Positions 34,455 through 47,124 of a stretch of DNA of 64,000 nucleotides are shown in pieces. The translations under genes were made by a program, and so were the position numbers. This stretch comes from a virus. The notes beneath the pieces were generated by a model. The model made no database searches and was not told the origin of the DNA. It saw nothing but the letters and a program-made list of their open reading frames with translations. The stretch's first letter is position 1; each line of letters starts with the position of its first letter. The DNA is taken from IMG/VR virus record IMGVR_UViG_3300043137_000281. One strand, 5' to 3'.

Positions 34455-34524
34455 AACGAATCACTTTCTCTTTCTGACTACTCTTACATCCTAGCAGATT
34501 CGCAGAGAAAGTCAAGTGGTATTT
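34455..34524 (-). promoter_or_regulatory. Promoter-leader cassette, copy 14
   Basis: rc: TACCACTTGACTTTCTCTGCGAATCTGCTAGGATGTAAGAGTAGTCAGAAAGAGAAAGTGATTCGTTATG. Confidence 0.55.
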
Positions 34525-34841
34525 TAGCCCATCAGAGAGCCCCCGGCTTTCTTACGTGCTTTTTCCACTGCATCTCGTGTCTTGATTGCTTTATGGTCTT
34601 TCTTACCATATTGCTGCGCCAGAGGACTATTTGGATTCGCTTCTGAAATCTTAGACATCACTTCCTTGAAGTGATCCGGCACCTTGCCGCCGCCATCTGA
34701 CCCCGTGGCATGCACAAAGTTCACTTGTTTATAAACTATGCGGATGGCACCGTCCGCAGTAAGTTCTTTCATGTCTTCATAAGACATTTTTTCTTCCCAC
34801 TCTTCACCGGTTTCTACATTCATTAGATCATATACTGGCAT
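34524..34841 (-). CDS. Hypothetical protein
   Basis: 105 aa ORF. Confidence 0.35.
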   Translation of the reverse strand: MPVYDLMNVETGEEWEEKMSYEDMKELTADGAIRIVYKQVNFVHATGSDGGGKVPDHFKEVMSKISEANPNSPLAQQYGKKDHKAIKTRDAVEKARKKAGGSLMG

Positions 34842-34882: not shown

Positions 34883-35341
34883 TTATTCAGGATTAATCAA
34901 TAGTTTTTTGAGACAATATGCATTTTTGATATCATTGTCAGAAATTATCCAGTCGCTTGTTAGGGTAAATCCAGCAGCCTCATATGTTTTTCTGCTGGTA
35001 TCACGAGGAAAACTCCATATTCCATTGCAATTCAGTTGTTGCGCTTTAGTAATACCGGCAGTCAGTAATGGAACACCCAGTCCCTTTCCTCGATATTCTT
35101 TTTCTATCCATAGTCCTCTACTTCTGTAAAGATTGTCCGGAGTAGTGTGGCCGCTGTTGACGCCGACAATTTTATCATCGACCAGCAAAGCAAAATATGT
35201 GATATTAGGAATATAGTCTAAACCGAAATATCCGCCACCATACCGCATACAGCTATGAGGTTCTAATGTTTCTTTGTTACTCCACGGCCAAAGACTTCGC
35301 CAGAATGGAATGATTTGTTCAAATGAAATTTCAGTTATCAT
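34883..35341 (-). CDS. GNAT-family N-acetyltransferase
   Basis: RGKGLGVPLLTAGITKAQQ acetyl-CoA binding motif (R/Q-x-x-G-x-G/A). Confidence 0.55.
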   Translation of the reverse strand: MITEISFEQIIPFWRSLWPWSNKETLEPHSCMRYGGGYFGLDYIPNITYFALLVDDKIVGVNSGHTTPDNLYRSRGLWIEKEYRGKGLGVPLLTAGITKAQQLNCNGIWSFPRDTSRKTYEAAGFTLTSDWIISDNDIKNAYCLKKLLINPE

Positions 35342-35384
35342 AAAGTTATATATAATCTATACAAAGAATTAATATGAGTGTTTC

Positions 35385-36014
35385 ATGGCCAGTATTACGG
35401 ACCTAGTTTCAAATTTCGGTGATATCATAGAGCTTGATTACCAGTGGAATCTAGGTGACCCAGAAAAATTAATATCGCATCCTGGATGGGTGAAGTATAA
35501 TCCCCGTAAAGACGGATACAATCGATATGGACTTTCTGTTACAAGCGCGGACGGCGGTTTCTCTGGAATTCCAGATTTGGATTCCCTTCGCGAATATAAT
35601 AGAATTAACAACACAACTTTCACTGAGGCTGACTTCAATAAGAAAACCAGTATCGTATCTCGCTATCAAGAATTAGAGCAAATTCTCAATCTATTTGGAA
35701 ATGATTGTGGCCGATGTCACTTTCTTCGTTTGGACCGCGGCGGATTTTTCCCGCCGCATCGCGATAACGGCACATCTTTGCCTAGCAAGACCTTTAGAAT
35801 AATTGTCCCTCTTCATAATTTCGGCAAACATCAAGTTAAATGGATACAAGAGGATAAAGTCCTAAATTTTGAAATCGGCAGAGCCTACTTTGTTAATACA
35901 ACAAAAGAGCATTCTGTCTTTTCCTTTGTAGATAATTCTATCATGTTTGTGATGAATATTATGGCGACAGAAAATAGCATTCAACAAGTAGCAAATAATG
36001 CCAAAATTTTATGA
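35385..36014 (+). CDS. Cupin / 2OG-Fe(II) oxygenase-like (Asp/Asn beta-hydroxylase-like) protein
   Basis: FFPPHRDNG (HxD) ... TTKEHSVF (distal His). Confidence 0.45.
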   Translation: MASITDLVSNFGDIIELDYQWNLGDPEKLISHPGWVKYNPRKDGYNRYGLSVTSADGGFSGIPDLDSLREYNRINNTTFTEADFNKKTSIVSRYQELEQILNLFGNDCGRCHFLRLDRGGFFPPHRDNGTSLPSKTFRIIVPLHNFGKHQVKWIQEDKVLNFEIGRAYFVNTTKEHSVFSFVDNSIMFVMNIMATENSIQQVANNAKIL

Positions 36015-36993
36015 TGAATGGATAACATCTAGTATTGATGGTAATGCTATGGTATGGAAATTGAATCTCACGCCCGACGAAATAGATTCAATTGACCCCA
36101 GCGACATTTCGAAATACTCAATCGATGCAGTAAATACATTGTTGCCAAATTTGGGGGCAAGGCCCGCTGTTTGTTTGAGTGGAGGAATAGACAGTCAAGT
36201 CATGGTTGACTGTTTCATTAGAGCTGGTGTTTCTTTCGATGTTGTCATAATGAGATTTCCTGATAATCTAAATTGGCATGACATCAAAACTGCCATAGAA
36301 TTTTGTGATAGCAGAAAATTACCATATACGTTTATAGATATAGATGTTATCAGATTTCTTAGTAGAGATTTAATCTCGTTTGCTGACAAGTATGATGTCA
36401 GTAGTCCACAATTTGCAACACACTTTAAAATGTTTGAGAAACTTCAAGAGTTGGGATATACTTCTGCGGTGTGCGGAGGAAATACTCTTCTAAACACAGC
36501 CGATGGCTGGATTTATCCTACTACTAAAGAGCAAAATGACTGGAGAAGTTTTTCAGAGAGATCCAACTTTTATGTCATGGGAGATTTTCTATCATATCAC
36601 TGGAAGTTTTCTCTTGCGTTTAGTTGTCACCAAGAAAAATCAAATCTAATTGACAAAACAAAAATTAATTTATTATCGAATGTGGCCAATCATGATGCTC
36701 TAGTATCAGATAGGTATAAAATAAAAGTTTCCGGTTTCATGTCGGCTGGGTTCGATATAATTCCACAAGAGGCAAAATTTACTGGCTTCGAGGAAGTAAA
36801 GGAAAAAATCAAAGACCATGATACTGGTGATGGTTGGGCGTTCGAGAAAAGATTTAGATTTCCTTTGCGTCTAAAAAATCCCACTCCAAATGTCAACAAG
36901 TTTCAATTATCTAATGAACAGGAAATAGCGTTAAATGCGCTATATGATAAATGTGTTTTTTCTAGGCAATCCTCTACCTGGATTACTGATTAA
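35998..36993 (+). CDS. PP-loop ATP pyrophosphatase (asparagine-synthetase-like / TilS / QueC superfamily)
   Basis: PAVCLSGGIDSQVMVDC contains the SGGxDS PP-loop signature. Confidence 0.55.
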   Translation: MPKFYDEWITSSIDGNAMVWKLNLTPDEIDSIDPSDISKYSIDAVNTLLPNLGARPAVCLSGGIDSQVMVDCFIRAGVSFDVVIMRFPDNLNWHDIKTAIEFCDSRKLPYTFIDIDVIRFLSRDLISFADKYDVSSPQFATHFKMFEKLQELGYTSAVCGGNTLLNTADGWIYPTTKEQNDWRSFSERSNFYVMGDFLSYHWKFSLAFSCHQEKSNLIDKTKINLLSNVANHDALVSDRYKIKVSGFMSAGFDIIPQEAKFTGFEEVKEKIKDHDTGDGWAFEKRFRFPLRLKNPTPNVNKFQLSNEQEIALNALYDKCVFSRQSSTWITD

Positions 36994-37662
36994 TCTCGTG
37001 CCGTTTTCAGACTTGTCGTAAGTTTCAGTGCCGCCGTGAATCCAAATTATTTCAGATAGGTCTAAGTCTTCGTATAGCGTGTATTCTCCTGCATACGGGT
37101 CATTAGTTGGTGCGGTACCTGTAATCAAGATTTTTTGTTTGCCACTATCTTCGGCTAACCATTTTTCTAATACGCCACGCTCTTGTTCATAAAACGCATT
37201 CATCTCTTCTAACGTAACAAAATATCTAAATTTGGTATTACAACATTCACCGTCTTTTAGATAACGTGGTCGAGGAGTGCCAAAAACTCTTTCAAGTTTA
37301 GGTGAAATTTCATTCACTTTTGGCCAGCCCACCAGAGTTAAAATATCATAGTCGTCAATCACAAAAGGTTTCTTAGAATAATATAGATTCTTTAGTGGAC
37401 TATTCTCATATCTAACTCGCATACCGCTATATAGAATATCTGGCACTTCGGTATTGTAATCTATTGGTCCCGTATTCAATATGAATTTGATGTCGGGATA
37501 CTTTTCTACCAAAGTCTCACAATACAGTAAGGAACGTTTCATTCGATTTGAAAATCCACCACAAAAAATTACCAGATCTACAGCATCAGGAATGACTTCA
37601 TCTTCTTCTGGAGTAAATTCGTGGAACTTCAAATCTAAATTACTTAAAACGTGGACTAGCAT
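36940..37662 (-). CDS. Hypothetical protein (possible degenerate phosphoesterase)
   Basis: 240 aa ORF, convergent with the plus-strand block. Confidence 0.35.
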   Translation of the reverse strand: MLVHVLSNLDLKFHEFTPEEDEVIPDAVDLVIFCGGFSNRMKRSLLYCETLVEKYPDIKFILNTGPIDYNTEVPDILYSGMRVRYENSPLKNLYYSKKPFVIDDYDILTLVGWPKVNEISPKLERVFGTPRPRYLKDGECCNTKFRYFVTLEEMNAFYEQERGVLEKWLAEDSGKQKILITGTAPTNDPYAGEYTLYEDLDLSEIIWIHGGTETYDKSENGTRLISNPGRGLPRKNTFII

Positions 37663-37722
37663 AACGTGCCTTTATAAATATAATAGAATTTACCTTGTTA
37701 ATCTTAGATAGGATTATATCAA

Positions 37723-39429
37723 ATGCAATACCAATTAACCTTCTCTACCATTGAGAATAGAAACGTTTTTGCAGAAAAGTGCGGTTTAGCAACTTCTGAA
37801 TCAGAAACTATTTATATTCCCTTAGCCCTTCTTGGTGTCGCTAAAGCAGACGCCAACGTTCAAGGTATTGTTCTTGACGGCGAGGGTGAGCTAACAGTTA
37901 TCATCAATACAGATGATGCCGCAGTTTTAGAGACGGTGACAATCGAAGAAGATTTGGGCGAGGGCGTCTATGTAGTGAAGACTTCTGACCCGCTTGCATT
38001 ATATGACTTAGTTGCTGGTAAAATGGACCCAGCCGATGCACCGGTAAAATTGATGAGTGAGTTGTCGGGAGAAACTACCGACCTATCCTCACAAGATGCA
38101 CAATGGGCAAGAATCCGTATCACATCTCGTTATCGTCCTTTCCCTACCAGCTTTGAAAAAATCTCTTCCGATTATAAATCAAAGCCAGAAATCTTTGTTA
38201 TCGATTCTGGTATCAATTTCAATCATGCCGAATTTCAAGACGATGCACTAGAAGTCGTAGATTTCTTCAAGATAAACGCAATTGCCAATTACGCTGACAA
38301 TTTAGGTCACGGAACGGCCATTGCTTCTACAATCGCTGGTAAGAATGTTGGTCTACAACAACATGCAAAATTGATGAACGTCAAAACTTTTGACCTCAAT
38401 CAAAAGCCAACTCTACTCGACTTGGGTGCAGCTATCGACGCAATTCTTGCGCACCATCAAAATACACCTACTGTGCCCAAAGTAGTCAATTGCTCATGGT
38501 TAGTACCAAAGAGCTTTTACCTAGAGCAAAAAATTCAAAGCCTAATCAATTCAGGTATCACTGTTGTTGCCGCTGCAGGTAACTTCGGAGACGATGTTGC
38601 ACTTTATTCGCCAGCCGGTATGGCAAATGTTATTACGGTTGCCGCGTCAGATAGTGACGATATTGCAGCAGGTTTCAATAACTTTGCCACTTCGAGTGAT
38701 GTCACAACCAACTTTGGTCAAGTTGTAGATATCTTTGCACCAGGTGTTCAAGTTACCGTAGCAGATGTTGCTGGAGCATATGTCAAGACAGATGGTACTT
38801 CTATCTCAGCAGGTTTTGTTAGTGGTGCAGCGGCGGCACTAATGTCAGTAGCAAATTCTGTGCAGACACCAGAAACTGTATTGAATCTTCTGGTACAGGA
38901 TTCTACGAAGGGTGTTCTTCTAGTAGACAATGCAAAATTTTCAAGCAATCAGAACAGAATGATTCACTTGGTTGATGGTAATGGCGAAATCGCAAACTAT
39001 GGCGATCTAGATTTCTATATGGGCATCTTCAACGATACCACAGAAACCATGGACGGAGATATCAACAATCTGGCATTTGGTTCTGCTACGGATATTTTCG
39101 GAAATTCGGCGGCATACAGTCTGGTATGGGATAACGAAGATATCAAAACGAAGTATGAACAATATGTCGCTCTAAATTCTGAGACTGGCGAATTTAATAT
39201 CTCGAAGCCACTGGAAACTTTACCAGAGGGGCAAACACTTGAAATCGTCAAATTCAAGATTCGACAAACTTCGACAGTAGGGGAAGCATTTTCTCCAAAT
39301 CTATTCTTCTTCGCAACCGACCCTTCTCGTGATGCCAGCTATGACTATAATACAGATATTGCCTCGGCACTTGAAAATATTAACAGCCAATCATACTTTG
39401 CTGCATGGCGAGGCGCTCACATTAAGTAA
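37723..39429 (+). CDS. Subtilisin-like serine protease (peptidase S8)
   Basis: Catalytic triad motifs FVIDSGI (Asp), LGHGTAIAST (His) and GTSISAGFVSGAAA (Ser) in the canonical order. Confidence 0.75.
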   Translation: MQYQLTFSTIENRNVFAEKCGLATSESETIYIPLALLGVAKADANVQGIVLDGEGELTVIINTDDAAVLETVTIEEDLGEGVYVVKTSDPLALYDLVAGKMDPADAPVKLMSELSGETTDLSSQDAQWARIRITSRYRPFPTSFEKISSDYKSKPEIFVIDSGINFNHAEFQDDALEVVDFFKINAIANYADNLGHGTAIASTIAGKNVGLQQHAKLMNVKTFDLNQKPTLLDLGAAIDAILAHHQNTPTVPKVVNCSWLVPKSFYLEQKIQSLINSGITVVAAAGNFGDDVALYSPAGMANVITVAASDSDDIAAGFNNFATSSDVTTNFGQVVDIFAPGVQVTVADVAGAYVKTDGTSISAGFVSGAAAALMSVANSVQTPETVLNLLVQDSTKGVLLVDNAKFSSNQNRMIHLVDGNGEIANYGDLDFYMGIFNDTTETMDGDINNLAFGSATDIFGNSAAYSLVWDNEDIKTKYEQYVALNSETGEFNISKPLETLPEGQTLEIVKFKIRQTSTVGEAFSPNLFFFATDPSRDASYDYNTDIASALENINSQSYFAAWRGAHIK

Positions 39430-39431
39430 TT

Positions 39432-40172
39432 ATGTCGAAGTTGGTTTTTCAAACAGAATTGGAGGGCATGTATTTGCCCTCCAAAATATGGGTTTATAAT
39501 GACTTCTTAGACGAAGATACTAGAATATGTATCAATAACTATATTAAACATAGAACTAGTGGCAAATGGAAACAAAATTTAAATGAGCAAAGAAGTTTTG
39601 TTTTCCAGGGTCAAAATATAAAGTTATGCGGTCTTTCTGGATATAGAGCATATCAAATTTTGTGGTCGCTCTCACAAATTCCAGAGTATTTTCACCAGAC
39701 AAACGATACTATTGCCGACTGGGCAGAACAACATCTCAATAAAAACTTAGACCCTGTCTGTCGATTGATGATACAATCTGCTAGAAATGCAGCGCCGTTC
39801 AACGGTGACAAAAATTGGATTCCGTTTAGAGGCATCATCAATATTTTGCCGGTGGGAGAAAATCTAGAGGCGCATCTTGATGCGGACGACCAAGTAATCG
39901 ACACAGAAAAAAGCCAAGTTCATAGCTTTACATATTATGCTAATGGTGCTAATGGCGGAGATTTTTGGGCGCACGATAAGTATGATGAAGAGTTTAGATA
40001 TTCACCGAGTGCAAATGATGCGTTGATTATTCAAGGTACCGGGACATATCATGGCGTCTCTAAGGTCAAAGAAAATACCAGACTTTGTATGACAATTAGG
40101 TTTATCCATGCAGATGACTTGATTCTTCATGGTCATCCAGATAAGTTCTTATGGAAACCTAATCTAGAATAA
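39432..40172 (+). CDS. 2OG-Fe(II) oxygenase family protein
   Basis: AHLDADD (HxD) ... GTGTYHGVS (distal His). Tightly linked to the protease gene, with a 2-nt gap. Confidence 0.45.
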   Translation: MSKLVFQTELEGMYLPSKIWVYNDFLDEDTRICINNYIKHRTSGKWKQNLNEQRSFVFQGQNIKLCGLSGYRAYQILWSLSQIPEYFHQTNDTIADWAEQHLNKNLDPVCRLMIQSARNAAPFNGDKNWIPFRGIINILPVGENLEAHLDADDQVIDTEKSQVHSFTYYANGANGGDFWAHDKYDEEFRYSPSANDALIIQGTGTYHGVSKVKENTRLCMTIRFIHADDLILHGHPDKFLWKPNLE

Positions 40173-40701
40173 CACCCTTGCAATGAATGGTATATCTTTT
40201 TTCTCTAGCGTTAGTTGTAACGGGTGTAACTAGATGTGGCTCTACCTTTGATTGGTTAATTAGACCACATGAGTTATACTCAGGAAGAAACACTTTGTAT
40301 TCTTCATCATCTAGATATACATACAGTCCACCATCGTCTGGTCGCCAATCTTTATTCAAATAGAACGTTGCATTGAACATATATCTACTGTCATCGTGGA
40401 TTCCAGTGGCTGCACCAACATCCCAAATCTGATAAAAAGCAGTGAAATCATATCCTCTAATGTTCGAATCGATTTCAATTAGTTTCTGGCGAATAAGATT
40501 TTTGATATCACCATTGATGTATTTAAATGTAATCTCACCTTGCTCATGAGGATATTCAGTAGTATTTTTTGTACCCGATGCTTCTGCAACATTGACTTTG
40601 GCTCGTGACCATGTGTGCCATCCACCTTTAAGCAATTCATTATCAAGGTCTGTGTGGATTCTTTCCAACTCATCTTCTGAGAAAACATCGGTTATAAACA
40701 T
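40159..40701 (-). CDS. 2OG-Fe(II) oxygenase family protein
   Basis: TGIHDDSRY (HxD) ... RYTIHCKGV (distal His, basic residue). Confidence 0.45.
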   Translation of the reverse strand: MFITDVFSEDELERIHTDLDNELLKGGWHTWSRAKVNVAEASGTKNTTEYPHEQGEITFKYINGDIKNLIRQKLIEIDSNIRGYDFTAFYQIWDVGAATGIHDDSRYMFNATFYLNKDWRPDDGGLYVYLDDEEYKVFLPEYNSCGLINQSKVEPHLVTPVTTNAREKRYTIHCKGVILD

Positions 40702-40777
40702 GGCAGCTAATCTCTTGGATTTAAATACAAAAATATGGACAGTTTCACATCATGTCCAGGATGTCACACGAGTGGGA

Positions 40778-41254
40778 TTAGAAACGAAGTCCTACGCCAA
40801 CAAGACCACCATGCTTGCCAACGCTACCGTCGAAATCGGTATAGCGGTATTCTACCTTAGTATAGACAGGTCCAAGAAGATTAACTTCAAGTCCGCCGCC
40901 GAGACGGAGACCCTCGAGGTCTACACCGCGAACCTGACGCCAGTTAGAGTAACCAGCTTTACCATAGAGTAGAACGTTATCGTTGATGGTATAACCTAGA
41001 CGGCCAGCAACGCCAATATCACGGCGGTCAAAAACGTTGTCCGCAGTCGCTTCTACACCAACTACAACCTTACCGAGTTGAAGGTCATAACCAAGACCTG
41101 CACCATAAGTTACATCTGTAGGGTCAACACCCTGTGTAACATCATCGGCACCAGCAGTAACTTCTAGTCGTGGACCAGAAAAGTCGCCAGCAAATGCAGG
41201 AGTTGTAAGTGTGGCAGTGCCTAGAGCGGCTGCAATCATAAAGTTTTTCATATA
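40778..41254 (-). CDS. Outer-membrane beta-barrel protein (OmpA-like/OMP_b-brl)
   Basis: Signal peptide MKNFMIAAALGTATLTTPAFA with RBS AAAGGTAAAA. Alternating hydrophobic beta-strands. C-terminal ...GVGLRF (terminal Phe). Confidence 0.55.
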   Translation of the reverse strand, partial: YMKNFMIAAALGTATLTTPAFAGDFSGPRLEVTAGADDVTQGVDPTDVTYGAGLGYDLQLGKVVVGVEATADNVFDRRDIGVAGRLGYTINDNVLLYGKAGYSNWRQVRGVDLEGLRLGGGLEVNLLGPVYTKVEYRYTDFDGSVGKHGGLVGVGLRF

Positions 41255-41290
41255 AGTTTTACCTTTAGTTGTTAATATAATCATAATATA

Positions 41291-41366
41291 TGGTACGGAG
41301 TGACGGGCTCGAACCGCCGACATTCTGCGTGTAAAGCAGACGCTCTACCATCTGAGCTAACCCCGC
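41291..41366 (-). tRNA. tRNA-Val(TAC)
   Basis: Cloverleaf folds by hand: acceptor GCGGGGT/ACTCCGT (2 GU), D GCTC/GAGC, anticodon loop TTTACAC, T-loop TTCGAGC, encoded CCA. Confidence 0.75.
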
Positions 41367-41797
41367 ACAACATGGTCCGCTGCATGGGTAGCAGCGAAGG
41401 AATCTGGTTTGATTTTAGCATCAATACCCAGAGTTCCCTTAACGTAGCCGAGTGCTTCTTTGACGGCTACATTACTCTTATACTTTGGATTTGGGTTAAT
41501 GTCAAGATGAATTTCCAACTTTCTTTCACCCAAAACGTCAAGTATAGATGTTGCGGCTTCAATAGCAAAACCAACTTCTGAAATTAGACGTTGACGTAAG
41601 TTACCGAAGTCACGCATTTCAATGTTTTTATGAAAAATTCTAGCGCCGTGCTTAGAATCCATGTGAAGAATAATTACGGTTGAATACTTGGCGTACCAAT
41701 GACCGTCTTTACGCTTGAATCTAATCGAATCGGCACCGATATAAACAGATGACGCTTCACTAGAATTTAGAATTGCTTCTCTTGCTTCATCATACAT
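41357..41797 (-). CDS. Hypothetical protein (possibly RNase H-like fold)
   Basis: 146 aa ORF with IYIGADS...HLDINPNPKYKSN motifs. Confidence 0.3.
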   Translation of the reverse strand: MYDEAREAILNSSEASSVYIGADSIRFKRKDGHWYAKYSTVIILHMDSKHGARIFHKNIEMRDFGNLRQRLISEVGFAIEAATSILDVLGERKLEIHLDINPNPKYKSNVAVKEALGYVKGTLGIDAKIKPDSFAATHAADHVVRG

Positions 41798-41815
41798 ACG
41801 TCACCTGTTCATAAA

Positions 41816-41889
41816 TGGCGAAGGTGCCGGGATTCGAACCCGGAACGACGGTTTTGGAGACCGTAATGATACCATTTCACTACACCGAC
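41816..41889 (-). tRNA. tRNA-Trp(CCA)-like, atypical acceptor stem
   Basis: Perfect anticodon arm ACGGT-CTCCAAA-ACCGT and T-arm CCGGG-TTCGAAT-CCCGG, encoded CCA. The acceptor stem has two mismatches (U2-U71, C3-U70). Confidence 0.45.
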
Positions 41890-41895
41890 AAAAAC

Positions 41896-41973
41896 TGGTC
41901 GGGAATGTAGGATTCGAACCTACGACCCCCTGCTCCCAAAGCAGGTGCGCTACCCAGACTGCGCTAATCCCCG
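41896..41973 (-). tRNA. tRNA-Pro(TGG)
   Basis: Acceptor CGGGGAT/ATTCCCG, anticodon loop TTTGGGA, T-loop TTCGAAT, encoded CCA. Confidence 0.75.
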
Positions 41974-41983
41974 AATTCTTTAA

Positions 41984-42166
41984 TTACTTTGGCTGTTCAT
42001 TTTCACCAAGCGCAGGTTCCGCAGCTGGTTCCACTGCATTTGCTGTAGCAAGTGCTTCATCGGCTGCTGGGCCCGCTGCTTCTATAACGGATGGTGCTTC
42101 TGTGCTAGGCGCACATGCCGCAGTAAGTGCTACAACTGCCGCTGCCATAAAAGTCTTGATGTTCAT
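41984..42166 (-). CDS. Small Ala/Pro-rich lipoprotein
   Basis: MNIKTFMAAAVVALTAAC lipobox. Strong RBS AAAGGAAAA. Sits between tRNA genes. Confidence 0.45.
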   Translation of the reverse strand: MNIKTFMAAAVVALTAACAPSTEAPSVIEAAGPAADEALATANAVEPAAEPALGENEQPK

Positions 42167-42187
42167 ATTATTTTCCTTTGTTGAAAA

Positions 42188-42268
42188 TGGAGCCCCCGAC
42201 AGGACTCAAACCTGCATGTAATTCAGTTAACCTTTCCACTGGTTCGTAGCCAGAGGGTATACGGAGGC
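42188..42268 (-). tRNA. tRNA-like gene of uncertain identity (81 nt)
   Basis: Perfect 7-bp acceptor GCCTCCG/CGGGGGC, T-arm GCAGG-TTTGAGT-CCTGT and encoded CCA. The interior does not fold into standard D and anticodon arms. A clean CTGG-CTACGAA-CCAG hairpin (ACG) sits too close to the 5' end. Confidence 0.35.
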
Positions 42269-42270
42269 AT

Positions 42271-42344
42271 TGGAGCGGATAGTGAGACTCAAACTCACCT
42301 CTTTAGCTTGGAAGGCTAAGGCACAATCTCTATACCATACCCGC
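42271..42344 (-). tRNA. tRNA-Gly(TCC)
   Basis: Acceptor GCGGGTA/TATCCGC. Anticodon arm TTAGC-CTTCCAA-GCTAA, near-identical to E. coli tRNA-Gly(UCC). T-loop TTTGAGT (C56 replaced by U), encoded CCA. Confidence 0.7.
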
Positions 42345-42360
42345 ATAATATTATTTATAG

Positions 42361-42437
42361 TGGCGACTCGGACGGGACTTGAACCCGCAACTTCCAGCGT
42401 GACAGGCTGGTGCTCTAACCAGTTGAACTACCGAGCC
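42361..42437 (-). tRNA. tRNA-Asp(GTC)
   Basis: Acceptor GGCTCGG/CCGAGTC, anticodon loop CTGTCAC, T-loop TTCAAGT, encoded CCA. Confidence 0.75.
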
Positions 42438-42461
42438 AAATAGAGTATGCATATATAACAT

Positions 42462-43085
42462 ATGCATTTTGATCCTAGACAGATTAAACATCTAACTGAT
42501 TCAGTCGATGATGTTCTAATTAAGACCTTATTGAATACTGCCAAAGAAGCAAAGTCTTCTCAAGCCACAGTGGGAAGTGTGGTTGATGACAGCTATGTTG
42601 CTGTTCACAATACTGACATCTGCACAGCCAACTTTGTAGATTATAACAACTTTGCTGATAATGTTGAACTACTTGTAATGCGCTGCAAGGAGCTTGTAGA
42701 GCATCACTATAGCGTGGAATGTGTGTCACATTCCATTGACTTTCTTCACTATCCAGACGGAACTCACTATTGGCCGCATATAGATGGTCAATACATAGAC
42801 GGTACATTTGTTCGCAGAAGTGATATCAATCGTGACATAACTTGCGTAGTGTATCTAAATGATGACTATCAAGGTGGCGAAGTATATTTTCCATTCTTTG
42901 ACATTGAGAAGAAGCCTAATACGGGCGACATATTAATGTATCCTGGTAGTTGGCAATATCTTCACGGCGTCAAGAAAGTAGAAGGTGTTCGTTACGCAAT
43001 AGTAGTTTGGTTCCATACAAGTCCTGAAATGTATCAGGATGAGGAAATTAAACATCATCACATAATGAGAACACTCACTCATTAA
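42462..43085 (+). CDS. Prolyl 4-hydroxylase-like 2OG-Fe(II) oxygenase
   Basis: HYWPHIDG (HxD), ...YLHGVKKVEGVRYAIVVWF (distal His and Arg). Plus strand, inside the tRNA island. Confidence 0.6.
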   Translation: MHFDPRQIKHLTDSVDDVLIKTLLNTAKEAKSSQATVGSVVDDSYVAVHNTDICTANFVDYNNFADNVELLVMRCKELVEHHYSVECVSHSIDFLHYPDGTHYWPHIDGQYIDGTFVRRSDINRDITCVVYLNDDYQGGEVYFPFFDIEKKPNTGDILMYPGSWQYLHGVKKVEGVRYAIVVWFHTSPEMYQDEEIKHHHIMRTLTH

Positions 43086-43170
43086 TGGTGGGCCAGTGAG
43101 GTATCGATCCTCCCCCGGTAACGGACGAGATTTACAGTCTCGCTGCTAGAGCCACTAGCTTTACCGACCC
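43086..43170 (-). tRNA. tRNA-Tyr(GTA), long variable arm
   Basis: Acceptor GGGTCGG/CTGGCCC, anticodon arm CGAGA-CTGTAAA-TCTCG, type-II variable arm, encoded CCA. The T-loop is unusual (ATCGATA). Confidence 0.6.
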
Positions 43171-43175
43171 AAAAA

Positions 43176-43269
43176 TGGTAGTCCCTGGTGGATTCGAACC
43201 ACCGACGCTCTCTAATCTGGAGACGATGCTGGATATAAGCCAGGTGTTTTACCGCTAAACTAAGGGACC
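43176..43269 (-). tRNA. Atypical 94-nt tRNA-like gene (anticodon loop CUUAUAU = UAU?, extra 24-nt variable hairpin)
   Basis: Good acceptor GGTCCCT/AGGGACT, D GTTT/AAAC, T-arm GGTGG-TTCGAAT-CCACC, encoded CCA. The anticodon stem has a C27-C43 mismatch. The variable region contains a TCTC-CAGATTA-GAGA hairpin. Confidence 0.45.
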
Positions 43270-43273
43270 GAAA

Positions 43274-43349
43274 CTGGTGCTCCCGAACGGATTCGAACCG
43301 CTGACACTCGGTTCTTCAAACCGATGCTCTACCAACTGAGCTACAGGAG
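43274..43349 (-). tRNA. tRNA-Phe(GAA)
   Basis: Acceptor GCTCCTG/CGGGAGC, anticodon loop TTGAAGA, T-loop TTCGAAT, encoded CCA. Confidence 0.8.
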
Positions 43350-43356
43350 CATATAA

Positions 43357-43439
43357 TGGTGCGGGTAGAGGGACTCGAACCCCCACGGTTGCCCGTCTGG
43401 ACCTAAACCAGGTGCGTCTACCAATTTCGCCATACCCGC
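43357..43439 (-). tRNA. tRNA-Leu(TAG), type II
   Basis: Acceptor GCGGGTA/TACCCGC, anticodon loop TTTAGGT, long variable arm, T-loop TTCGAGT, encoded CCA. Confidence 0.7.
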
Positions 43440-43440
43440 A

Positions 43441-43527
43441 AACTTGAGCGACCACCTAAGTGTGCCTTGAACGAATACGTCCGGACGCTTCGTTCTTCCT
43501 TTTCAGGTTCAGCATAGGTGGTCTAAC
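43441..43527 (-). ncRNA. Strongly structured roughly 85-nt spacer element between tRNA-Leu and tRNA-Ala (candidate small RNA or processing hairpin)
   Basis: Nested inverted repeats GACCACCTA...TAGGTGGTC, AACGAA...TTCGTT and central ACGTCCGGACGT palindrome. No T-arm motif. Confidence 0.3.
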
Positions 43528-43528
43528 T

Positions 43529-43604
43529 TGGTGGAGAATAACGGGATCGAACCGTTGACATCCAGCTTGCAAAGCTGGCGCTCTACCATCTGAGCTAATT
43601 CCCC
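43529..43604 (-). tRNA. tRNA-Ala(TGC)
   Basis: Acceptor GGGGAAT/ATTCTCC, anticodon arm CCAGC-TTTGCAA-GCTGG, T-arm AACGG-TTCGATC-CCGTT, encoded CCA. Confidence 0.8.
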
Positions 43605-43608
43605 AAAA

Positions 43609-43728
43609 CTTATTAGAAGAACACACAAGATATAGAATAGTGTTGGCGCACTACCGTTCGCTACTCGCCAAAGTAACCGAACCGCCGATTGGGCTAAAAC
43701 CGTCTAATGTGTTCATCTAATAAGTCTT
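43609..43728 (-). repeat. About 120-bp structured element with roughly 17-bp terminal inverted repeats, copy 1, fused to the 5' end of tRNA-Ala (candidate small stable RNA or processing element)
   Basis: CTTATTAGAAGAACACACAAG...CTAATGTGTTCATCTAATAAGTCTT. The termini are reverse-complementary. About 85% identical to copy 2. Confidence 0.5.
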
Positions 43729-44065
43729 TGTGAAGCATGAGATTACTGCTTCTAATTGAGTGCCTTTGGTCATTACCGAGTCCCTTGCGAGGATCGTTCT
43801 ACCGTTATCCACTAAAGTCCTTTCGGATTCTCTAGTATCACTCAGTGCTGCCTTTTTTGAGGTCTGGCGTTTGACCTATCATGCTACGCTATTCGTCCCT
43901 CAATCTTCCGTTTGCCTTGCGAGCAATTCGGTTCCGCTAAGAACCTACGTCTTCAATCCGAACAATCACATCATCCTTGCGGGAATCCGTGAACCCAATT
44001 CACTTCCGTGTCAGGTATTAAGCACCTTTCACATAGCACTGGAGCAGACTTTCGCTTTTGTTATA

Positions 44066-44140
44066 CAAACCAGGAATTGAACCTAGATCGACAGTTTAAG
44101 AGACTGTTGTCTTACCATTAGACAATTTGCGAACCTACCA
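44066..44140 (-). pseudogene. tRNA-like pseudogene/fragment inside the non-coding island (intact D, anticodon CTT-loop and T arms, but no pairable acceptor stem)
   Basis: Minus-strand GTCT-AATGGTA-AGAC, ACAGT-CTCTTAA-ACTGT and CTAGG-TTCAATT-CCTGG arms. The flanking 7-mers are not complementary. Confidence 0.35.
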
Positions 44141-44751
44141 AGAAGTGCTGCTCCAGCAGATCCATATCTTGTTAGATACGGAATACTACACTCCTCATGT
44201 CTTTTACCTTGCGGGCTACTCAACGGCACTTCTAGTTTCCCCTCATCGGTTCTACTATTGTGCTACCGCTTTGCCTTTCCTTGCTAGGTCAGACTTAGCG
44301 ATTACCCATTAGTTTTCAGCATTCGCGAGTTTGGTTCGATACAGCTAGACCACCACAGTCTATTAGAACTCACCGACTGGCTCTGTTCGTATCCTTTCGG
44401 ACTTATATCACTCACTTACTGCCTACCGCCATTCTACTGACGGGAGATGCTTTCGGTAATGCCGAGACATCTCTAACTTGGGCTTGCATAGATGAACCAT
44501 TACTGGCGCAGTTACGTAGGAGTCCCTGCTTTGGCCGCATTACTGCGGTTATTCTAACGAGGCTATGCCCCCAATTCTTATTCTCTACTTATACACCACT
44601 TTATGGTGTTTGTAAATACTTTTTTGAAAAATATTTACGAGAAACTAGGCCCGGGATATTTTACAAGCATACGGGCGGCGCTTGCCGTTTTGTTTACAAC
44701 GTATAATCTGTTAGGGTATATACGTTGGTTCAGCAGACGGTACTGCTTATC

Positions 44752-44826
44752 TGGTTGCAGGAGTCGGACTTGAACCGACGACCTTCTGGTTATGAGCCAG
44801 ACGAGCTACCACTGCTCCACCCTGCG
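44752..44826 (-). tRNA. Initiator tRNA-fMet(CAT)
   Basis: About 85% identical in layout to E. coli tRNA-fMet, including the C1:A72 mismatch and CTCATAA loop: CGCAGGGTGGAGCAGTGGTAGCTCGTCTGGCTCATAACCAGAAGGTCGTCGGTTCAAGTCCGACTCCTGCAACCA. Confidence 0.8.
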
Positions 44827-44832
44827 TCAAAC

Positions 44833-44907
44833 TGGCTCCCTAAGATGGATTCGAACCACCGACCAATTGATTAACAGTCAACTGCGCTACCGCTGCGCCA
44901 TTAGGGA
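44833..44907 (-). tRNA. tRNA-Asn(GTT)
   Basis: Acceptor TCCCTAA/TTAGGGA, D GCGC/GCGC, anticodon loop CTGTTAA, T-loop TTCGAAT, encoded CCA. Confidence 0.75.
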
Positions 44908-44996
44908 ATATAAGCACCTCACGTCTTGGTGCTTACGTCAAACATTCTCGACAGACTCCATACACCATACGGTATGCGAGTAGTTTGACTATAAAA

Positions 44997-45072
<76 letters not shown>

Positions 45073-45076
45073 AAGA

Positions 45077-45201
45077 CTTATTAGAAGAACACACAAGATA
45101 TAAAAAGGTGTTGGCGCACCAATCGTTCGCTATCCGCCAAGATAACCGATCCGCCACCTCAATAGGCTAAGATCGTCTAATGTATTCATCTAATAAGTCT
45201 T
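45077..45201 (-). repeat. About 120-bp terminal-inverted-repeat element, copy 2, fused to the 5' end of tRNA-Thr
   Basis: Same termini and internal GTTGGCGCAC...CGCCAA hairpin as copy 1. Begins 4 nt from the tRNA-Thr 5' end, as copy 1 does from tRNA-Ala. Confidence 0.5.
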
Positions 45202-45240
45202 GTGTGGGGAGCCGAAGCTCCCCGACACAAACTTTTTTCT
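45202..45240 (+). terminator. Stem-loop followed by a T-run (factor-independent terminator-like) immediately beside TIR element copy 2
   Basis: TTGTGTGGGGAGC-CGAA-GCTCCCCGACACAA then ACTTTTTT on the plus strand. The orientation relative to the minus-strand tRNA operon suggests it may instead be an RNA processing hairpin. Confidence 0.3.
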
Positions 45241-45261
45241 AACGATGTCAAAGAACAGAAC

Positions 45262-45296
45262 TAATATATATACTGTTTTACCGAAAATGTCAAGAA
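45262..45296 (-). promoter_or_regulatory. Sigma70-type promoter of the tRNA-His ... tRNA-fMet operon (minus strand)
   Basis: rc reads TTGACA-TTTTCGGTAAAACAGTA-TATATA, followed by the conserved GTTCTGTTCTTTGACATCGTTAG that is shared with the promoter at 48562-48600. Confidence 0.5.
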
Positions 45297-45322
45297 CTTT
45301 TTTAATTATTTTCGAAAAACTT

Positions 45323-45398
45323 TGGGGTGAATGAAGGGGATCGAACCCTCGACATGCGGCACCACAAGCCACCGCTCTACCACTGAGCTACACTCACC
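45323..45398 (-). tRNA. tRNA-His(GTG) with encoded G-1
   Basis: Extra 5' G pairing with the C73 discriminator (bacterial His identity). Acceptor GTGAGTG/CATTCAC, anticodon loop TTGTGGT, T-loop TTCGATC, encoded CCA. Confidence 0.75.
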
Positions 45399-45561
45399 AT
45401 AATACCGATGAAGGTTCAAACGATGTATGCATCCATCTCCCTACTCGACGTATTCTCCCACTCGGTAAAACATGGGCGCTTACTTTTGGCGGAGTTGCCA
45501 ATCGCGCAAAACAGAATACCAACTGCGATCGACCATTACCGTATTCTCGACTCCATAAACT

Positions 45562-45648
45562 TGGCGGAAGGTGTGGGAGTCGAACCCACTCAACCATTTC
45601 TGGTTGACGCATTAGCAGTGCGTTGCATTACCGTCCTGCCCACCTTCC
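45562..45648 (-). tRNA. tRNA-Ser(GCT), type II
   Basis: Acceptor GGAAGGT/ACCTTCC, anticodon arm ACGCA-CTGCTAA-TGCGT, variable arm CAACCA/TGGTTG, T-arm GTGGG-TTCGACT-CCCAC, encoded CCA. Confidence 0.75.
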
Positions 45649-45655
45649 GTTTATA

Positions 45656-46453
45656 TTACTTGACGTTCACAATACCCTTGAAGTCATAAGGAACGATAAT
45701 CGTAGAAACCTTACCTTCTTTGACTGCCTCTGCAATCGTTACAAGAGCGGTTGCTTCCATGTATTTGGTAGCGCCAGCGTTAGCATTCAATGCAGCAATA
45801 CGTTCTGCTTCCAACTTCGCGGTACGAACTTCAACCAGCTTCTGCTTTTCAGCATTTTGTGCCTGCACCAGTTGGTTAGCAGACGCTACGATGTTGGCAG
45901 CTGGCTTGACCTGACGAACGAGAACCTGTGACACATCAATCTGGCCGTCAAGTTTTTCGGCAACGAGGCTGGCAATAATTTCCTGACGAATCAACACTTC
46001 CATCTCGGCGCGATTATCAGCCATCTTCAAAGATTCGTAACGACGAGCAACCTTGTATGCAGCGTTACGGCCGAGCTGGCGAATGTAGTTATACATCAAC
46101 AGCGTATCACCTTCTTCGGTATCAGCGTGGAAACCACGGTTCTTTTCTACATAGATTTCAGCCGCGCTAGTCGGATTGATTGAATAAATCACTGACATAT
46201 CGAAGTCGGCAACAGTTGAGTTGTCGCTGGCAAGAGGAGTCAAGTCAACGATATCAACCTGAACATCCTTCGTCGGGAAAGTAAGAACTTCACCAAAAAT
46301 AGTCTGATTGATAGAACCTGGCTGTAGTTCAGTGGTTTCAATGGTCTTGTCGAACGAACGACGGACACCAACTTCACCTGTTTCAATTCGGGTACAGGCA
46401 GCGGTACCAACCAGAAGAAGCGACAGGGCGGAAATCTTAGCAACACGATTCAT
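45656..46453 (-). CDS. SPFH/Band-7 (prohibitin/HflK-like) lipoprotein
   Basis: Lipobox LLLVGTAAC. Band-7 core followed by an Ala/Glu-rich coiled-coil tail (QAQNAEKQKLVEVRTAKLEAERIAALNANAG). RBS AAGGAA before MNRVAK. Confidence 0.6.
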   Translation of the reverse strand: MNRVAKISALSLLLVGTAACTRIETGEVGVRRSFDKTIETTELQPGSINQTIFGEVLTFPTKDVQVDIVDLTPLASDNSTVADFDMSVIYSINPTSAAEIYVEKNRGFHADTEEGDTLLMYNYIRQLGRNAAYKVARRYESLKMADNRAEMEVLIRQEIIASLVAEKLDGQIDVSQVLVRQVKPAANIVASANQLVQAQNAEKQKLVEVRTAKLEAERIAALNANAGATKYMEATALVTIAEAVKEGKVSTIIVPYDFKGIVNVK

Positions 46454-46467
46454 AATAATTTTATTCC

Positions 46468-46645
46468 TTAGAAAATCAAAACAATTGCCGTAACAACGAC
46501 CATCGCTGCTACAGAACACACTATACTATAGGCGAACAACTTTGTCAAGCCTAATTTTTCAGATTTAGTCATTTTTCTGAACATATCAATACCGACAATA
46601 AATCCAAACAGGATAAACATGAAGGCAACAATCATTTTACTCATA
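46468..46645 (-). CDS. Small membrane protein (58 aa)
   Basis: Two TM helices. The upper part of ORF 46468..46890 overlaps tRNAs and is discarded. Confidence 0.35.
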
Positions 46646-46652
46646 ACAAGAC

Positions 46653-46727
46653 TTTCTGTGTTGGTAGCCCGAACGGGTTTCGATCCCGCTTCTCTGCCTT
46701 GAAAGGGCAGTGTCCTAGCCACTAGAC
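46653..46727 (-). tRNA. tRNA-Glu(TTC)
   Basis: Close to E. coli tRNA-Glu: GGCCCGGTCGTCTAGTGGCTAGGACACTGCCCTTTCAAGGCAG... The T-loop is ATCGAAA (T54 replaced by A). Encoded CCA. Confidence 0.7.
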
Positions 46728-46730
46728 GAC

Positions 46731-46805
46731 CGGGCCATTTGGAGCGGGGGAGCGGATTCGAACCGCCGACCGTCTCGTTGGCAACGAGATGCTCTACCAC
46801 TGAGC
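46731..46805 (-). tRNA. tRNA-Gly(GCC)
   Basis: Acceptor GCGGGTG/CCCCCGC (one U-C mismatch), anticodon arm TCTCG-TTGCCAA-CGAGA, T-loop TTCGAAT, encoded CCA. Confidence 0.7.
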
Positions 46806-46809
46806 TACA

Positions 46810-46887
46810 CCCGCATTGTGGAGTCACGAGCCGGATTCGAACCGGCGGCTTTACGGATTTGCAATCCGTTGCATTGGACCACTCTGC
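46810..46887 (-). tRNA. tRNA-Cys(GCA)
   Basis: Acceptor GTCACGA/TCGTGAC, anticodon arm ACGGA-TTGCAAA-TCCGT, T-arm GCCGG-TTCGAAT-CCGGC, encoded CCA. Confidence 0.7.
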
Positions 46888-46888
46888 C

Positions 46889-46960
46889 ATCGTGACATGG
46901 TACCAGCAGGTGGTAACGCTCCACCCGAACCAACCTTATGAGAGTCGGTCGAACACTTGT
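46889..46960 (-). tRNA. Aberrant 72-nt tRNA-like gene with CAT anticodon loop (possible tRNA-Ile2/Met variant or pseudogene)
   Basis: Acceptor ACCAGTA/TGCTGGT pairs (A1-U72). Anticodon arm CGACT-CTCATAA-GGTTG. The D-arm is truncated (GAAC-AAGT-GTTC) and the T-loop AGCGTTA is non-canonical. Encoded CCA. Confidence 0.35.
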
Positions 46961-46961
46961 T

Positions 46962-47037
46962 CTACTGGTGTGGTGCGAGTGACAGGGTTCGAACCTGTGA
47001 CCTAACGATTATCGGTCGTTTGCTCTACCAACTGAGC
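46962..47037 (-). tRNA. tRNA-Ile(GAT)
   Basis: Acceptor GCGAGTG/CACTCGC, anticodon arm AACGA-CCGATAA-TCGTT, T-loop TTCGAAC, encoded CCA. Confidence 0.8.
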
Positions 47038-47042
47038 TACAC

Positions 47043-47118
47043 TCGCAAATATGGTGGACACTCTGGGGTTCGAACCCAGGACCTACAGGTTAAAAGCCCG
47101 TTGCTCTACCTACTGAGC
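47043..47118 (-). tRNA. tRNA-Lys(TTT)
   Basis: Acceptor GGACACT/AGTGTCC, anticodon loop CTTTTAA, T-loop TTCGAAC, encoded CCA. Confidence 0.8.
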
Positions 47119-47124
47119 TAAGTG

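Follow-up and report, generated by a model that had tools for sequence, protein, structure and literature searches.

An AsnB-like PP-loop ATPase and a subtilase form the core of a mobile enzyme cassette in uncultured phages

Do a subtilisin-like protease, a PP-loop ATPase, and several 2-oxoglutarate (2OG)/Fe(II) oxygenases that are encoded close together in a phage genome belong to one modification system, and if so, what do they modify? The question is raised by a 64,000-nucleotide (nt) stretch of DNA from the IMG/VR record IMGVR_UViG_3300043137_000281 (the window), which is part of a large uncultured phage genome and encodes ribonucleotide reductase, an ATP-dependent DNA ligase, and a primase. 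A first-pass annotation, made from the sequence alone, proposed that positions 35385-43085 hold a module for modifying proteins, peptides, or nucleic acids, and all of the open reading frames (ORFs) that it named are present where it placed them. We found that a PP-loop enzyme of predicted AsnB type and a proteinase-K-type subtilase form an obligate two-protein core, which lies within a horizontally mobile, phage-specific enzyme cassette (34883-40172). Modification of a peptide or protein is still the best reading of the module; a TilS- or QueC-type identity for the PP-loop protein is not supported, and the module does not extend to five oxygenases. The genes of the cassette are as follows.

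34883-35341, minus strand: GNAT N-acetyltransferase of 152 amino acids (aa), accessory; divergent from the gene at 35385 and outside the region that the first-pass annotation described
35385-36014, plus strand: 2OG/Fe(II) oxygenase of 209 aa, AspH/free-proline-hydroxylase clade, accessory
35998-36993, plus strand: PP-loop ATP pyrophosphatase of 331 aa with a predicted AsnB/beta-lactam-synthetase-type synthetase domain, core
36940-37662, minus strand: calcineurin-like (metallophosphoesterase-like) protein of 240 aa with degenerate metal ligands, accessory
37723-39429, plus strand: S8 subtilase of 568 aa, proteinase K type, core
39432-40172, plus strand: second 2OG/Fe(II) oxygenase of 246 aa, accessory

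We used a profile of the PP-loop protein to fetch 77 viral loci (56 after dereplication) and scored the window's proteins against the six-frame ORFs of each. An S8 subtilase is present in 49 of the 56 loci, and it lies 1.2-2.3 kb from the PP-loop gene at identities from 80% down to ~24%. Two of the seven loci that lack it are cut at a contig end; the other five, with full flanks, belong to the most divergent subgroup of PP-loop proteins. A reciprocal scan that started from the subtilase, seeded with 11 closer sequences, gave the same picture. Pooling the loci and dereplicating them at 85% identity left 78 subtilase units. There is a PP-loop gene within 3 kb in 77 of these, and in every one of the 61 units whose flanks extend for 3 kb or more in both directions. 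The sole exception is a secreted I9-S8-PPC protease from a cellular metagenome-assembled genome (MAG). In four units, the neighbor is a QueC-like PP-loop protein of ~200 aa, not an AsnB-like one. (ORFs were called mechanically in six frames, the dereplication thresholds are arbitrary, and the folds that we discuss rest on predicted models.)

Gene order and orientation vary between lineages (PP-loop then S8, S8 then PP-loop, or divergent), and the adjacency is kept. Homologues of the PP-loop gene at 89%, 50%, 43%, and 36% identity have a subtilase of ~555-580 aa beside them and a GNAT gene nearby, while their other neighbors mostly differ. Minimal versions consist of the PP-loop and S8 genes alone, and simpler loci from other phages have contiguous PP-loop, S8, and GNAT operons. 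This adjacency is far beyond chance. It is kept from 89% to ~24% identity and at every testable locus, which bears out the idea that the protease and the ATPase are functionally linked.

Three viral contigs have two PP-loop/S8 pairs each, in one case ~12 kb apart. These are IMGVR_UViG_3300049460_000128 (loci L030 and L039), IMGVR_UViG_3300049460_000196 (L027 and L059), and IMGVR_UViG_3300028588_000819 (L050/L240 and L210). In T4-like marine phages (L049, L067, L047, L052, and related loci), the genes that immediately precede the pair are nrdA, nrdB, a 99-aa gene, and a PAAR-like gene. A radical-SAM (rSAM) protein of 338 aa with a Cys-rich C-terminus is encoded next to the pair in these loci, on a side that differs from locus to locus.

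Two viral contigs, L125 and L126, are syntenic with the window phage and related to it, with proteins that are 50-85% identical across many genes. The block 34883-41323 is missing from both; in L126, the genes homologous to 41357-41797 and 34524-34841 are direct neighbors, in that order. The absence of the block from syntenic relatives indicates that it is an accessory insertion. The G+C content is 0.37 at 36-38 kb and ~0.44 around it. Also, the cassette is a plus-strand island, as the initial description had it: all 25 tRNA genes (41291-48526) and most of the window's ORFs of at least 120 aa are on the minus strand. Next to the place where the block is missing, L125 (3695-8627) and L126 (2642-8642) have another module, with genes for a GT2 glycosyltransferase, a Coq4-like protein, an rSAM-SPASM protein, a B12-binding rSAM protein, a QueC-like PP-loop protein, and finally an oxygenase homologous to the 35385 product, whose gene overlaps that of the QueC-like protein.

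Within the cassette, the ATG of the PP-loop gene overlaps the upstream oxygenase gene by 17 nt, which suggests that the two are translationally coupled. The minus-strand gene at 36940 has a 54-nt convergent overlap with the 3' end of the PP-loop gene. The intergenic gaps are 43, 60, and 2 nt, and the smallest of these confirms the earlier observation that the second oxygenase gene starts 2 nt past the stop codon of the protease. This six-gene arrangement (oxygenase, PP-loop, opposite-strand gene, S8, and oxygenase, with GNAT nearby) recurs in about two dozen dereplicated units at 32-39% identity of the PP-loop protein. On one 219-kb contig, it is again a plus-strand island amid a minus-strand region. 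Two loci from one lineage, L018 (13627-14445) and L034 (13663-14472), have three small genes between the subtilase and the second oxygenase, encoding a holin-like membrane protein, a lipoprotein, and a 132-aa protein that contains cysteine, so the two halves of the cassette need not be contiguous.

What kind of enzyme is the PP-loop protein? Its signature motif, S61-G-G-I-D-S66, is invariant in the family. Pfam, NCBIfam, PHROGs, and PADLOC assign it to no family at threshold. Sub-threshold matches to NadE, QueC, and MnmA cover only the PP-loop region of ~65 residues, and a 40-sequence profile matched PDB sequences over that same region only. An AlphaFold2 model built from a 40-sequence alignment is a single domain with a predicted local distance difference test (pLDDT) score of 91.5, and beta-lactam synthetase, carbapenam synthetase, and TsnB9 are among its top five structural matches. 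The protein has the fold of the AsnB synthetase domain and the SGGxDS motif. We found no N-terminal nucleophile (Ntn) glutaminase domain: there are ~55 residues before the PP-loop, and neither Pfam nor NCBIfam identified a GATase domain. PF00733 (Asn_synthase) is not matched by the window protein at the curated threshold, and precomputed or weak matches to it are found in only a few distant homologues. From the fold assignment and the lack of room for a glutaminase domain, the protein is predicted to be a stand-alone AsnB-class synthetase domain.

So the description of this ATPase as AsnB-like was right at the level of fold. The proposed alternative of a TilS- or QueC-type enzyme found no support when we classified the protein with profile hidden Markov models (HMMs), as none for TilS, QueC, or LarE reached its threshold. 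Specifically, we did not find PF01171 or the C-terminal tRNA-binding domains of TilS, nor PF06508 above threshold or the C-terminal zinc-binding Cys cluster of QueC, and there was no above-threshold match across the whole domain to LarE or NadE. Some members of the PP-loop family are fusions: P0272 has an N-terminal GNAT domain, while P0303 and P0337 have a C-terminal domain of ~240 aa that looks methyltransferase-like by eye and has no match in Pfam.

A word-indexed search placed the PP-loop family in 124 clusters at 90% identity. An exhaustive search gave 353 clusters (at 50% identity) with E<=1e-30 and 1267 with E<=1e-10. The family is seen almost only in viromes and metagenomes, and no source names any of its members. 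Using tblastn against GenBank phages, we found no match to the window protein or to a distant member from the T4-like lineage, so no cultured phage in the GenBank phage collection carries the family. A scan of 185,579 species genomes for a single sequence motif found cellular homologues at three loci only, all in Bdellovibrionales MAGs; this count is a lower bound. In BFVD, a library of viral structures, the matches were only to uncharacterized proteins of uncultured phages.

The subtilase matches Pfam's Peptidase_S8 (PF00082) with E = 1.5e-27. It was annotated as having a full D/H/S triad, and indeed D161, H196, and S360, in the D-H-S order of S8 proteases, are invariant in 45 homologues, along with the oxyanion residue N287. 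The closest PDB sequences (E ~1e-40) are proteinase K-type proteases, aqualysin, and PCSK9. The match to these begins near W128, an invariant residue within a "WARIR" motif similar to the N-terminus of mature proteinase K, which implies that there is a prodomain of ~120 residues. The layout would then be a putative prodomain of ~120 aa, a catalytic domain at 157-397, and a C-terminal region of ~170 aa. In none of 29 members do the N- and C-terminal regions match a Pfam family. By eye (no predictor was run), no signal peptide is apparent at the N-terminus, and the subtilase appears to stay in the cell.

As first described, the module included five 2OG oxygenases. Five such genes do lie within 14 kb, and three of these are outside the cassette.

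29298-29831, minus strand: 2OG/Fe(II) oxygenase of 177 aa, outside the module
40159-40701, minus strand: 2OG/Fe(II) oxygenase of 180 aa, outside the conserved module; its gene has a 14-nt convergent overlap with the 39432 gene
42462-43085, plus strand: 2OG/Fe(II) oxygenase of 207 aa, prolyl-4-hydroxylase-like, inside the tRNA island, loosely associated

All five belong to the 2OG superfamily; the fold was confirmed for the 35385 product only (in a predicted model), and the triads of the 40159, 42462, and 29298 products were read from sequence. These last three match Pfam's 2OG-FeII_Oxy_3 above the gathering score (E = 5e-8, 5e-14, and 3.6e-8, respectively). For the 35385 and 39432 products, the Pfam match is below threshold or absent, and the HxD...H(+R) triad is invariant across homologues.

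The 35385 product's best structural matches are free-proline hydroxylases and Cpz10, which acts on an intermediate of a nucleoside antibiotic. It is at least 50% identical across its top 120 clusters. Oxygenases of this type lie within 6 kb of the S8 gene in 28 of the 78 units and are found in 21 of the 56 dereplicated PP-loop loci. In a scan that began with the oxygenase, we also found this type directly after a QueC-like PP-loop gene, beside rSAM-SPASM genes, with GNAT, or alone. Because of these varied contexts, it appears to be a promiscuous tailoring enzyme that has repeatedly been coupled to a PP-loop ATPase. The 39432 product has no Pfam match, but it matches phrog_274 (E = 4.7e-7) and the PADLOC model "2OG" (E = 2.4e-8), and H148, D150, H207, R217, and R223 are invariant in 17 homologues. 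This type is within 6 kb of the S8 gene in 24/78 units. Profile searches against PDB sequences gave nothing significant for either cassette oxygenase or for the 240-aa protein.

The 35385 and 39432 oxygenases are thus co-conserved with the core, and that part of the original proposal stands; the other three are not. The 40159 oxygenase is next to the cassette only in relatives whose PP-loop proteins are 80-89% identical (L001-L003, L009, and L010), and the 29298 oxygenase is co-located only in close relatives and in L031. The 42462 gene (phrog_61, E = 2e-25) does sit inside the tRNA island, between tRNA-Asp and tRNA-Ile, as had been noted. It has a homologue inside the cassette of the 80% relative (L009/L010) and near the cassettes of L030 and L031, and is absent elsewhere. 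From these co-occurrence data, we rejected the five oxygenases as one functional cluster. Fourteen of 16 marine cyanomyophages carry several 2OG oxygenase genes, up to five (PMC3037559), so having five is not remarkable as such. The 2OG genes of marine T4-like cyanophages are also small, with several per genome, in variable regions near tRNAs (PMC3037559). In contrast, two of those in the window are fixed in a conserved cassette, and one of these is apparently translationally coupled to the PP-loop enzyme.

The first-pass annotation overlooked two conserved members of the cassette, the GNAT gene (34883-35341) and the minus-strand gene for the 240-aa protein. The GNAT protein has weak matches to N-acetyltransferase models in NCBIfam, and its homologues elsewhere carry Pfam's Acetyltransf_1 or Acetyltransf_7. 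It lies within 6 kb of the S8 gene in 35 of the 78 units. The 240-aa protein matches Pfam's Metallophos (PF00149) only at E = 0.016. We did not find the motifs of calcineurin-like metallophosphoesterases (DxH/GD/GNHE/H/GHxH) in it: across 18 homologues, none of the His or Asp metal ligands is invariant, and the window's copy has SNLDL and CGG at the first two motifs. The protein is probably non-catalytic, rather than a phosphoesterase. Its gene is at the same position and on the opposite strand in 24/78 units.

Other partners within 6 kb of the S8 gene include DUF6171 (14/78), rSAM-SPASM-like proteins (12/78), and QueC-like PP-loop proteins (10/78). Genes for rSAM-SPASM, B12-rSAM, and nitroreductase proteins accompany other versions of the cassette. 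Hence the tailoring enzymes around the core are interchangeable: in place of the window's set, other phages have radical-SAM/SPASM, nitroreductase, methyltransferase-like, DUF6171, or QueC-like proteins. Among the defense systems in PADLOC, there were only generic matches ("subtilase" and "2OG"), and none for the PP-loop protein, the GNAT protein, or the 35385 product.

What might these enzymes do together? The PP-loop motif, the S8 triad, and the triads of both cassette oxygenases are invariant across homologues, and the enzymes are catalytically competent. Their chemistry and their substrate are what we infer here. We consider it plausible, if somewhat short of an even chance, that the cassette matures a peptide or protein by ATP-dependent activation of a carboxylate coupled to proteolysis, together with hydroxylation and acetylation. 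The subtilase would remove its own prodomain and then cut the substrate. The PP-loop enzyme would adenylate a carboxylate, which could be an Asp or Glu side chain or a C-terminus exposed by the cleavage, and ammonia or an amine of the substrate would resolve the adenylate to yield an amide, an isopeptide, or a lactam. The oxygenases would hydroxylate side chains, and the GNAT protein would acetylate an amine. The substrate itself would come from outside the cassette: it could be a host protein, a phage protein that is encoded elsewhere, or the subtilase with its prodomain.

Enzymes of the AsnB class adenylate a carboxylate and hand it on to a nitrogen nucleophile. Because a protease is the invariable partner of the AsnB-class enzyme, the carboxylate or the amine probably belongs to a peptide or protein. 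The 17-nt overlap, the 2-nt gap, the PP-loop-S8-GNAT operons, the fusion of GNAT to the PP-loop protein, and the tailoring-type neighbors all argue for a module. Also, QueC-family PP-loop enzymes are known to modify protein N-termini, as in Cap9 (10.1101/2025.04.06.647259) and QatC (PMC13279940).

Several observations weigh against maturation of a peptide or protein, beginning with the missing substrate gene. No precursor peptide was evident in the first-pass annotation, and our search agrees. The gaps of 43, 60, and 2 nt leave no room for a precursor gene in the cassette, and when we clustered every ORF of 30 aa or more that lies up to 6 kb from the PP-loop gene in 56 loci, no small ORF was universally conserved. 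Recurrent small clusters inside genes are antisense shadows of conserved coding sequence, and the recurrent small transmembrane ORFs are part of the T4-like backbone. The sole small ORF that recurs beside the pair is DUF6171, which does so in some lineages only and is adjacent in 14 of 78 units. The window's own copy of DUF6171 (28129-28314, minus strand) lies 8 kb away from the cassette, and the 80% relative has not kept it. A Pfam scan of the window's cassette did not find a recognition element or any other hallmark of peptides that are made by the ribosome and then modified post-translationally (RiPPs). Furthermore, the subtilase belongs with the broad-specificity proteases of the proteinase K type and not with LanP or PatA. 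The proteins that best match the 35385 oxygenase in structure have free amino acids or small molecules as their substrates, which fits small-molecule chemistry equally well or better. tRNA genes lie within 10 kb in 32 of 46 dereplicated PP-loop/S8 loci, about a dozen of which have arrays of 8-25, and peptide maturation does not predict this. All of the chemistry is read from folds and gene neighborhoods. Finally, the counts apply to this clade alone, since the scans that gave our loci were seeded with these very families and the contigs were ones predicted to be viral.

The precursor may be encoded elsewhere or fused to an enzyme. DUF6171 proteins are Cys-rich and 60-86 aa long, with the pattern CxxC...CxxCGC...CPxxKW, and several copies end exactly at the conserved KW; the protein could be a substrate or a zinc-ribbon cofactor. 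DUF6171 is directly beside the pair, sometimes in two copies, in L038, L041, L044, L051, L058, L210, L219-L222, L241, L242, and L247.

One of the cellular loci has a different set of neighbors. In L087 (768-20656 of a 428-kb contig from a Bdellovibrio MAG), a PP-loop homologue with 27% identity is encoded 1.2 kb from a YcaO gene. Within 9 kb of it are genes for a nitroreductase, a GNAT protein, and the secreted I9-S8-PPC protease, and a fatty-acid-hydroxylase-family protein, a cupin, a Pirin, and a large sulfatase-like protein are also encoded nearby. By its gene content, this single case looks like a possible RiPP-type cluster of the peptide-tailoring kind.

A bolder version of the proposal, which we find possible but doubtful, is that the cassette encodes a virus-specific protein-modification machine of a new type. 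The protease would make a new terminus, on a host target or on itself, and the AsnB- or QueC-like ATPase would cap or cross-link that terminus, for host takeover or counter-defense. This would be a viral counterpart of the N-terminal conjugation by QueC-family enzymes in QatABCD and in cyclic-oligonucleotide-based antiphage signaling systems (CBASS), and it might be tied to translation, given how often the pair is found beside tRNA arrays.

Alternatively, the cassette could make a small molecule, which we think is unlikely. The oxygenase would hydroxylate a free or carrier-bound amino acid, the AsnB-type enzyme would form an amide or lactam in the manner of beta-lactam synthetase, CarA, and TsnB9, the protease would supply building blocks or release the product from a scaffold peptide, and the GNAT protein would protect or finish it. 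The structural matches to free-proline hydroxylases and Cpz10 fit with this, as do beta-lactam synthetase, carbapenam synthetase, and TsnB9 in the top five matches of the PP-loop protein, and no precursor gene was found. The conservation of the 35385 oxygenase (at least 50% identity across the top 120 clusters) is as expected for a universal small substrate, and oxygenases of this type also occur away from S8 genes, beside QueC-like, rSAM, GT2, and Coq4-like genes. On the other hand, the universal partner of the PP-loop protein is the protease (49/56 loci) and not the oxygenase (21/56). The minimal versions with just the PP-loop and S8 genes are hard to read as a metabolite pathway, and there is no conserved carrier, transporter, or resistance gene nearby.

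The cassette might instead modify tRNA or another nucleic acid, with the PP-loop enzyme adenylating a base in DNA or in a tRNA of the phage or host, like TilS and enzymes of the QueC pathway, and the GNAT protein and the oxygenases acting on the same nucleic acid; this seems distinctly unlikely to us. The window's cassette abuts an island of 25 tRNA genes, and besides the 32 of 46 loci mentioned above (L009, L024, L036, L041, L047, L050, and L051 are among the loci with tRNAs near the pair), tRNA genes are no more than 6 kb away in 15 of another 25 loci. Compared with a random position, the PP-loop/S8 pair is far more often found beside tRNA arrays. Oxygenase loci with a QueC-like gene are also beside tRNA arrays (those with rSAM genes are not: 0/14). 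In a few clusters, the subtilase is paired with the QueC-like PP-loop protein of 200 aa. In tRNAs with a CAU anticodon, C34 is a known target of GNAT enzymes and of PP-loop enzymes alike. However, the HMMs for TilS, QueC, and LarE were all below threshold, the PP-loop protein has no RNA-binding domain and no zinc motif of the QueC type, and an obligate protease partner does not fit any known pathway of nucleic-acid modification. Also, 14 of the 46 loci have no tRNA within 10 kb, and tRNA regions are hot-spots for accessory genes in T4-like marine phages (PMC3037559). The proximity to tRNAs may reflect such a hot-spot effect or a functional link to translation.

Could the subtilase simply degrade proteins? 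A broad-specificity intracellular protease could break down host proteins for nutrients or remove a specific factor, such as a defense protein, while the PP-loop protein acts as an ammonia-dependent enzyme similar to asparagine synthetase or controls the zymogen. The proteinase K type, the prodomain-like N-terminus, and the apparent lack of a signal peptide are compatible with this, as is an AsnB synthetase fold that lacks the glutaminase domain, and the cassette is an accessory insertion among auxiliary genes. Still, the strict pairing, the fusion to GNAT, and the company of hydroxylases, rSAM proteins, and nitroreductases suggest directed chemistry and not bulk degradation, so we consider host takeover or nutrient recycling to be very unlikely. 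The PP-loop protein is also below the Asn_synthase threshold, and the family has "CGGN" at what is presumably the place of AsnB's SGEGSDE acid motif.

That unrelated auxiliary genes came together by chance in a hypervariable region is extremely improbable for the cassette as a whole. Chance does account for the 40159, 42462, and 29298 oxygenases, whose co-conservation is limited to close relatives or a few loci; it is common for marine phages to have 2OG oxygenase genes in multiple copies, and the region that holds the block, beside the tRNAs, is variable. For the core and the six-gene cassette, chance is refuted: the PP-loop and S8 genes are adjacent in 61/61 testable units, across rearrangements and down to ~24% identity; the six-gene order, including the opposite-strand gene, is repeated in ~24 dereplicated units; and members have overlapping start and stop codons and a gene fusion. 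The first-pass annotation had named two signs of random co-location, and neither was observed: the PP-loop ORF groups with no housekeeping family, and its neighbors are co-conserved.

The phage has no close cultured relative by protein searches (its DNA ligase is at most 35% identical to its matches, and its AAA-ATPase 48.5%). At the DNA level, the region has no near-identical counterpart among GenBank phages, where only tRNA fragments matched. A scan for promoters and terminators at 34-43.2 kb gave counts that were not above those of shuffled controls, and no transcription units were called. ARAGORN's call for a tRNA-Ile with anticodon TAT (43176-43269, minus strand) is 94-95 nt long, and there is a similar call in L051 (503-597). 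Such a length is unusual for a tRNA that is not of class II, and could be due to an intron, an insertion, or a miscall. Other genes in and next to the tRNA island are as follows.

40778-41323, minus strand: outer-membrane beta-barrel protein with a signal peptide (Pfam OMP_b-brl, E = 2.3e-13)
41357-41797, minus strand: PF04308 RNaseH-like (YkuK-type) protein inside the tRNA island (E = 2.4e-23; phrog_11311)
41984-42166, minus strand: small lipoprotein-like ORF at the edge of the tRNA island
45656-46519, minus strand: SPFH/Band 7 protein inside the tRNA island (E = 2.2e-13)

The beta-barrel protein and the lipoprotein-like ORF suggest that the host is Gram-negative.

How does the cassette relate to known systems? 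The enzymes closest to the PP-loop protein are beta-lactam synthetase, CarA, and TsnB9, which are AsnB-class synthetases that work without glutamine hydrolysis. The PP-loop protein differs from these in having no Ntn domain at all (331 aa instead of ~500 aa) and is just 9-15% identical to them. It is also obligately paired with a protease and almost entirely confined to phages. The biosynthesis of lasso peptides follows the logic proposed here, in that proteolysis frees a terminus and an AsnB-like enzyme activates the carboxylate of an Asp or Glu by adenylation to form an isopeptide, and some lasso clusters include tailoring by a hydroxylase and an acetyltransferase. But the protease here is an S8 subtilase instead of a transglutaminase-like cysteine protease, and the N-terminal domain of the cyclase is missing. 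We found no match among the cassette genes to the transglutaminase-like leader protease or, in the Pfam scan, to a PqqD-like recognition element, and neither the cassette nor the ORF clustering across 56 loci yielded a precursor gene.

Cap9 from type IV CBASS and QatC from QatABCD are PP-loop ATPases that are each dedicated to a partner protein and modify its terminus, and the phages that pair the subtilase with a QueC-like PP-loop protein of 200 aa are a point of kinship with these. The subtilase shares its catalytic domain, a W-x-x-R-I motif near the mature N-terminus, and a layout of prodomain, catalytic domain, and C-terminal region with proteinase K, aqualysin, and PCSK9. Unlike those proteases, it has no apparent signal peptide, its N- and C-terminal regions have no match in Pfam, and it is encoded beside a PP-loop ATPase.

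In the literature, we found no description of a PP-loop protein with subtilisin in phage, of asparagine synthase with peptidase S8 in phage, or of DUF6171. A survey of the QueC family (PMC13329287) does not mention a protease or a phage context. Nor does any curated model, named protein, or retrievable paper describe the PP-loop family or the subtilase pairing. Each part comes from a known superfamily, and RiPP pathways likewise combine a protease with ATP-dependent formation of amides and with tailoring. What sets the cassette apart from the described systems, none of which it belongs to, is the combination of its parts, together with its confinement to phages, its lack of a precursor, and a PP-loop partner that can be exchanged.

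An adenylating enzyme with an AsnB or QueC fold that works with a subtilase has not been described in the tailoring of peptides or proteins. If our reading is correct, then a widespread and unnamed module for modifying peptides or proteins is common to large aquatic phages, T4-like myoviruses and jumbo phages among them. A PP-loop family with several hundred sequence clusters would thereby gain a role, and at least some of the 2OG oxygenase genes that marine phages carry in multiple copies would be accounted for.

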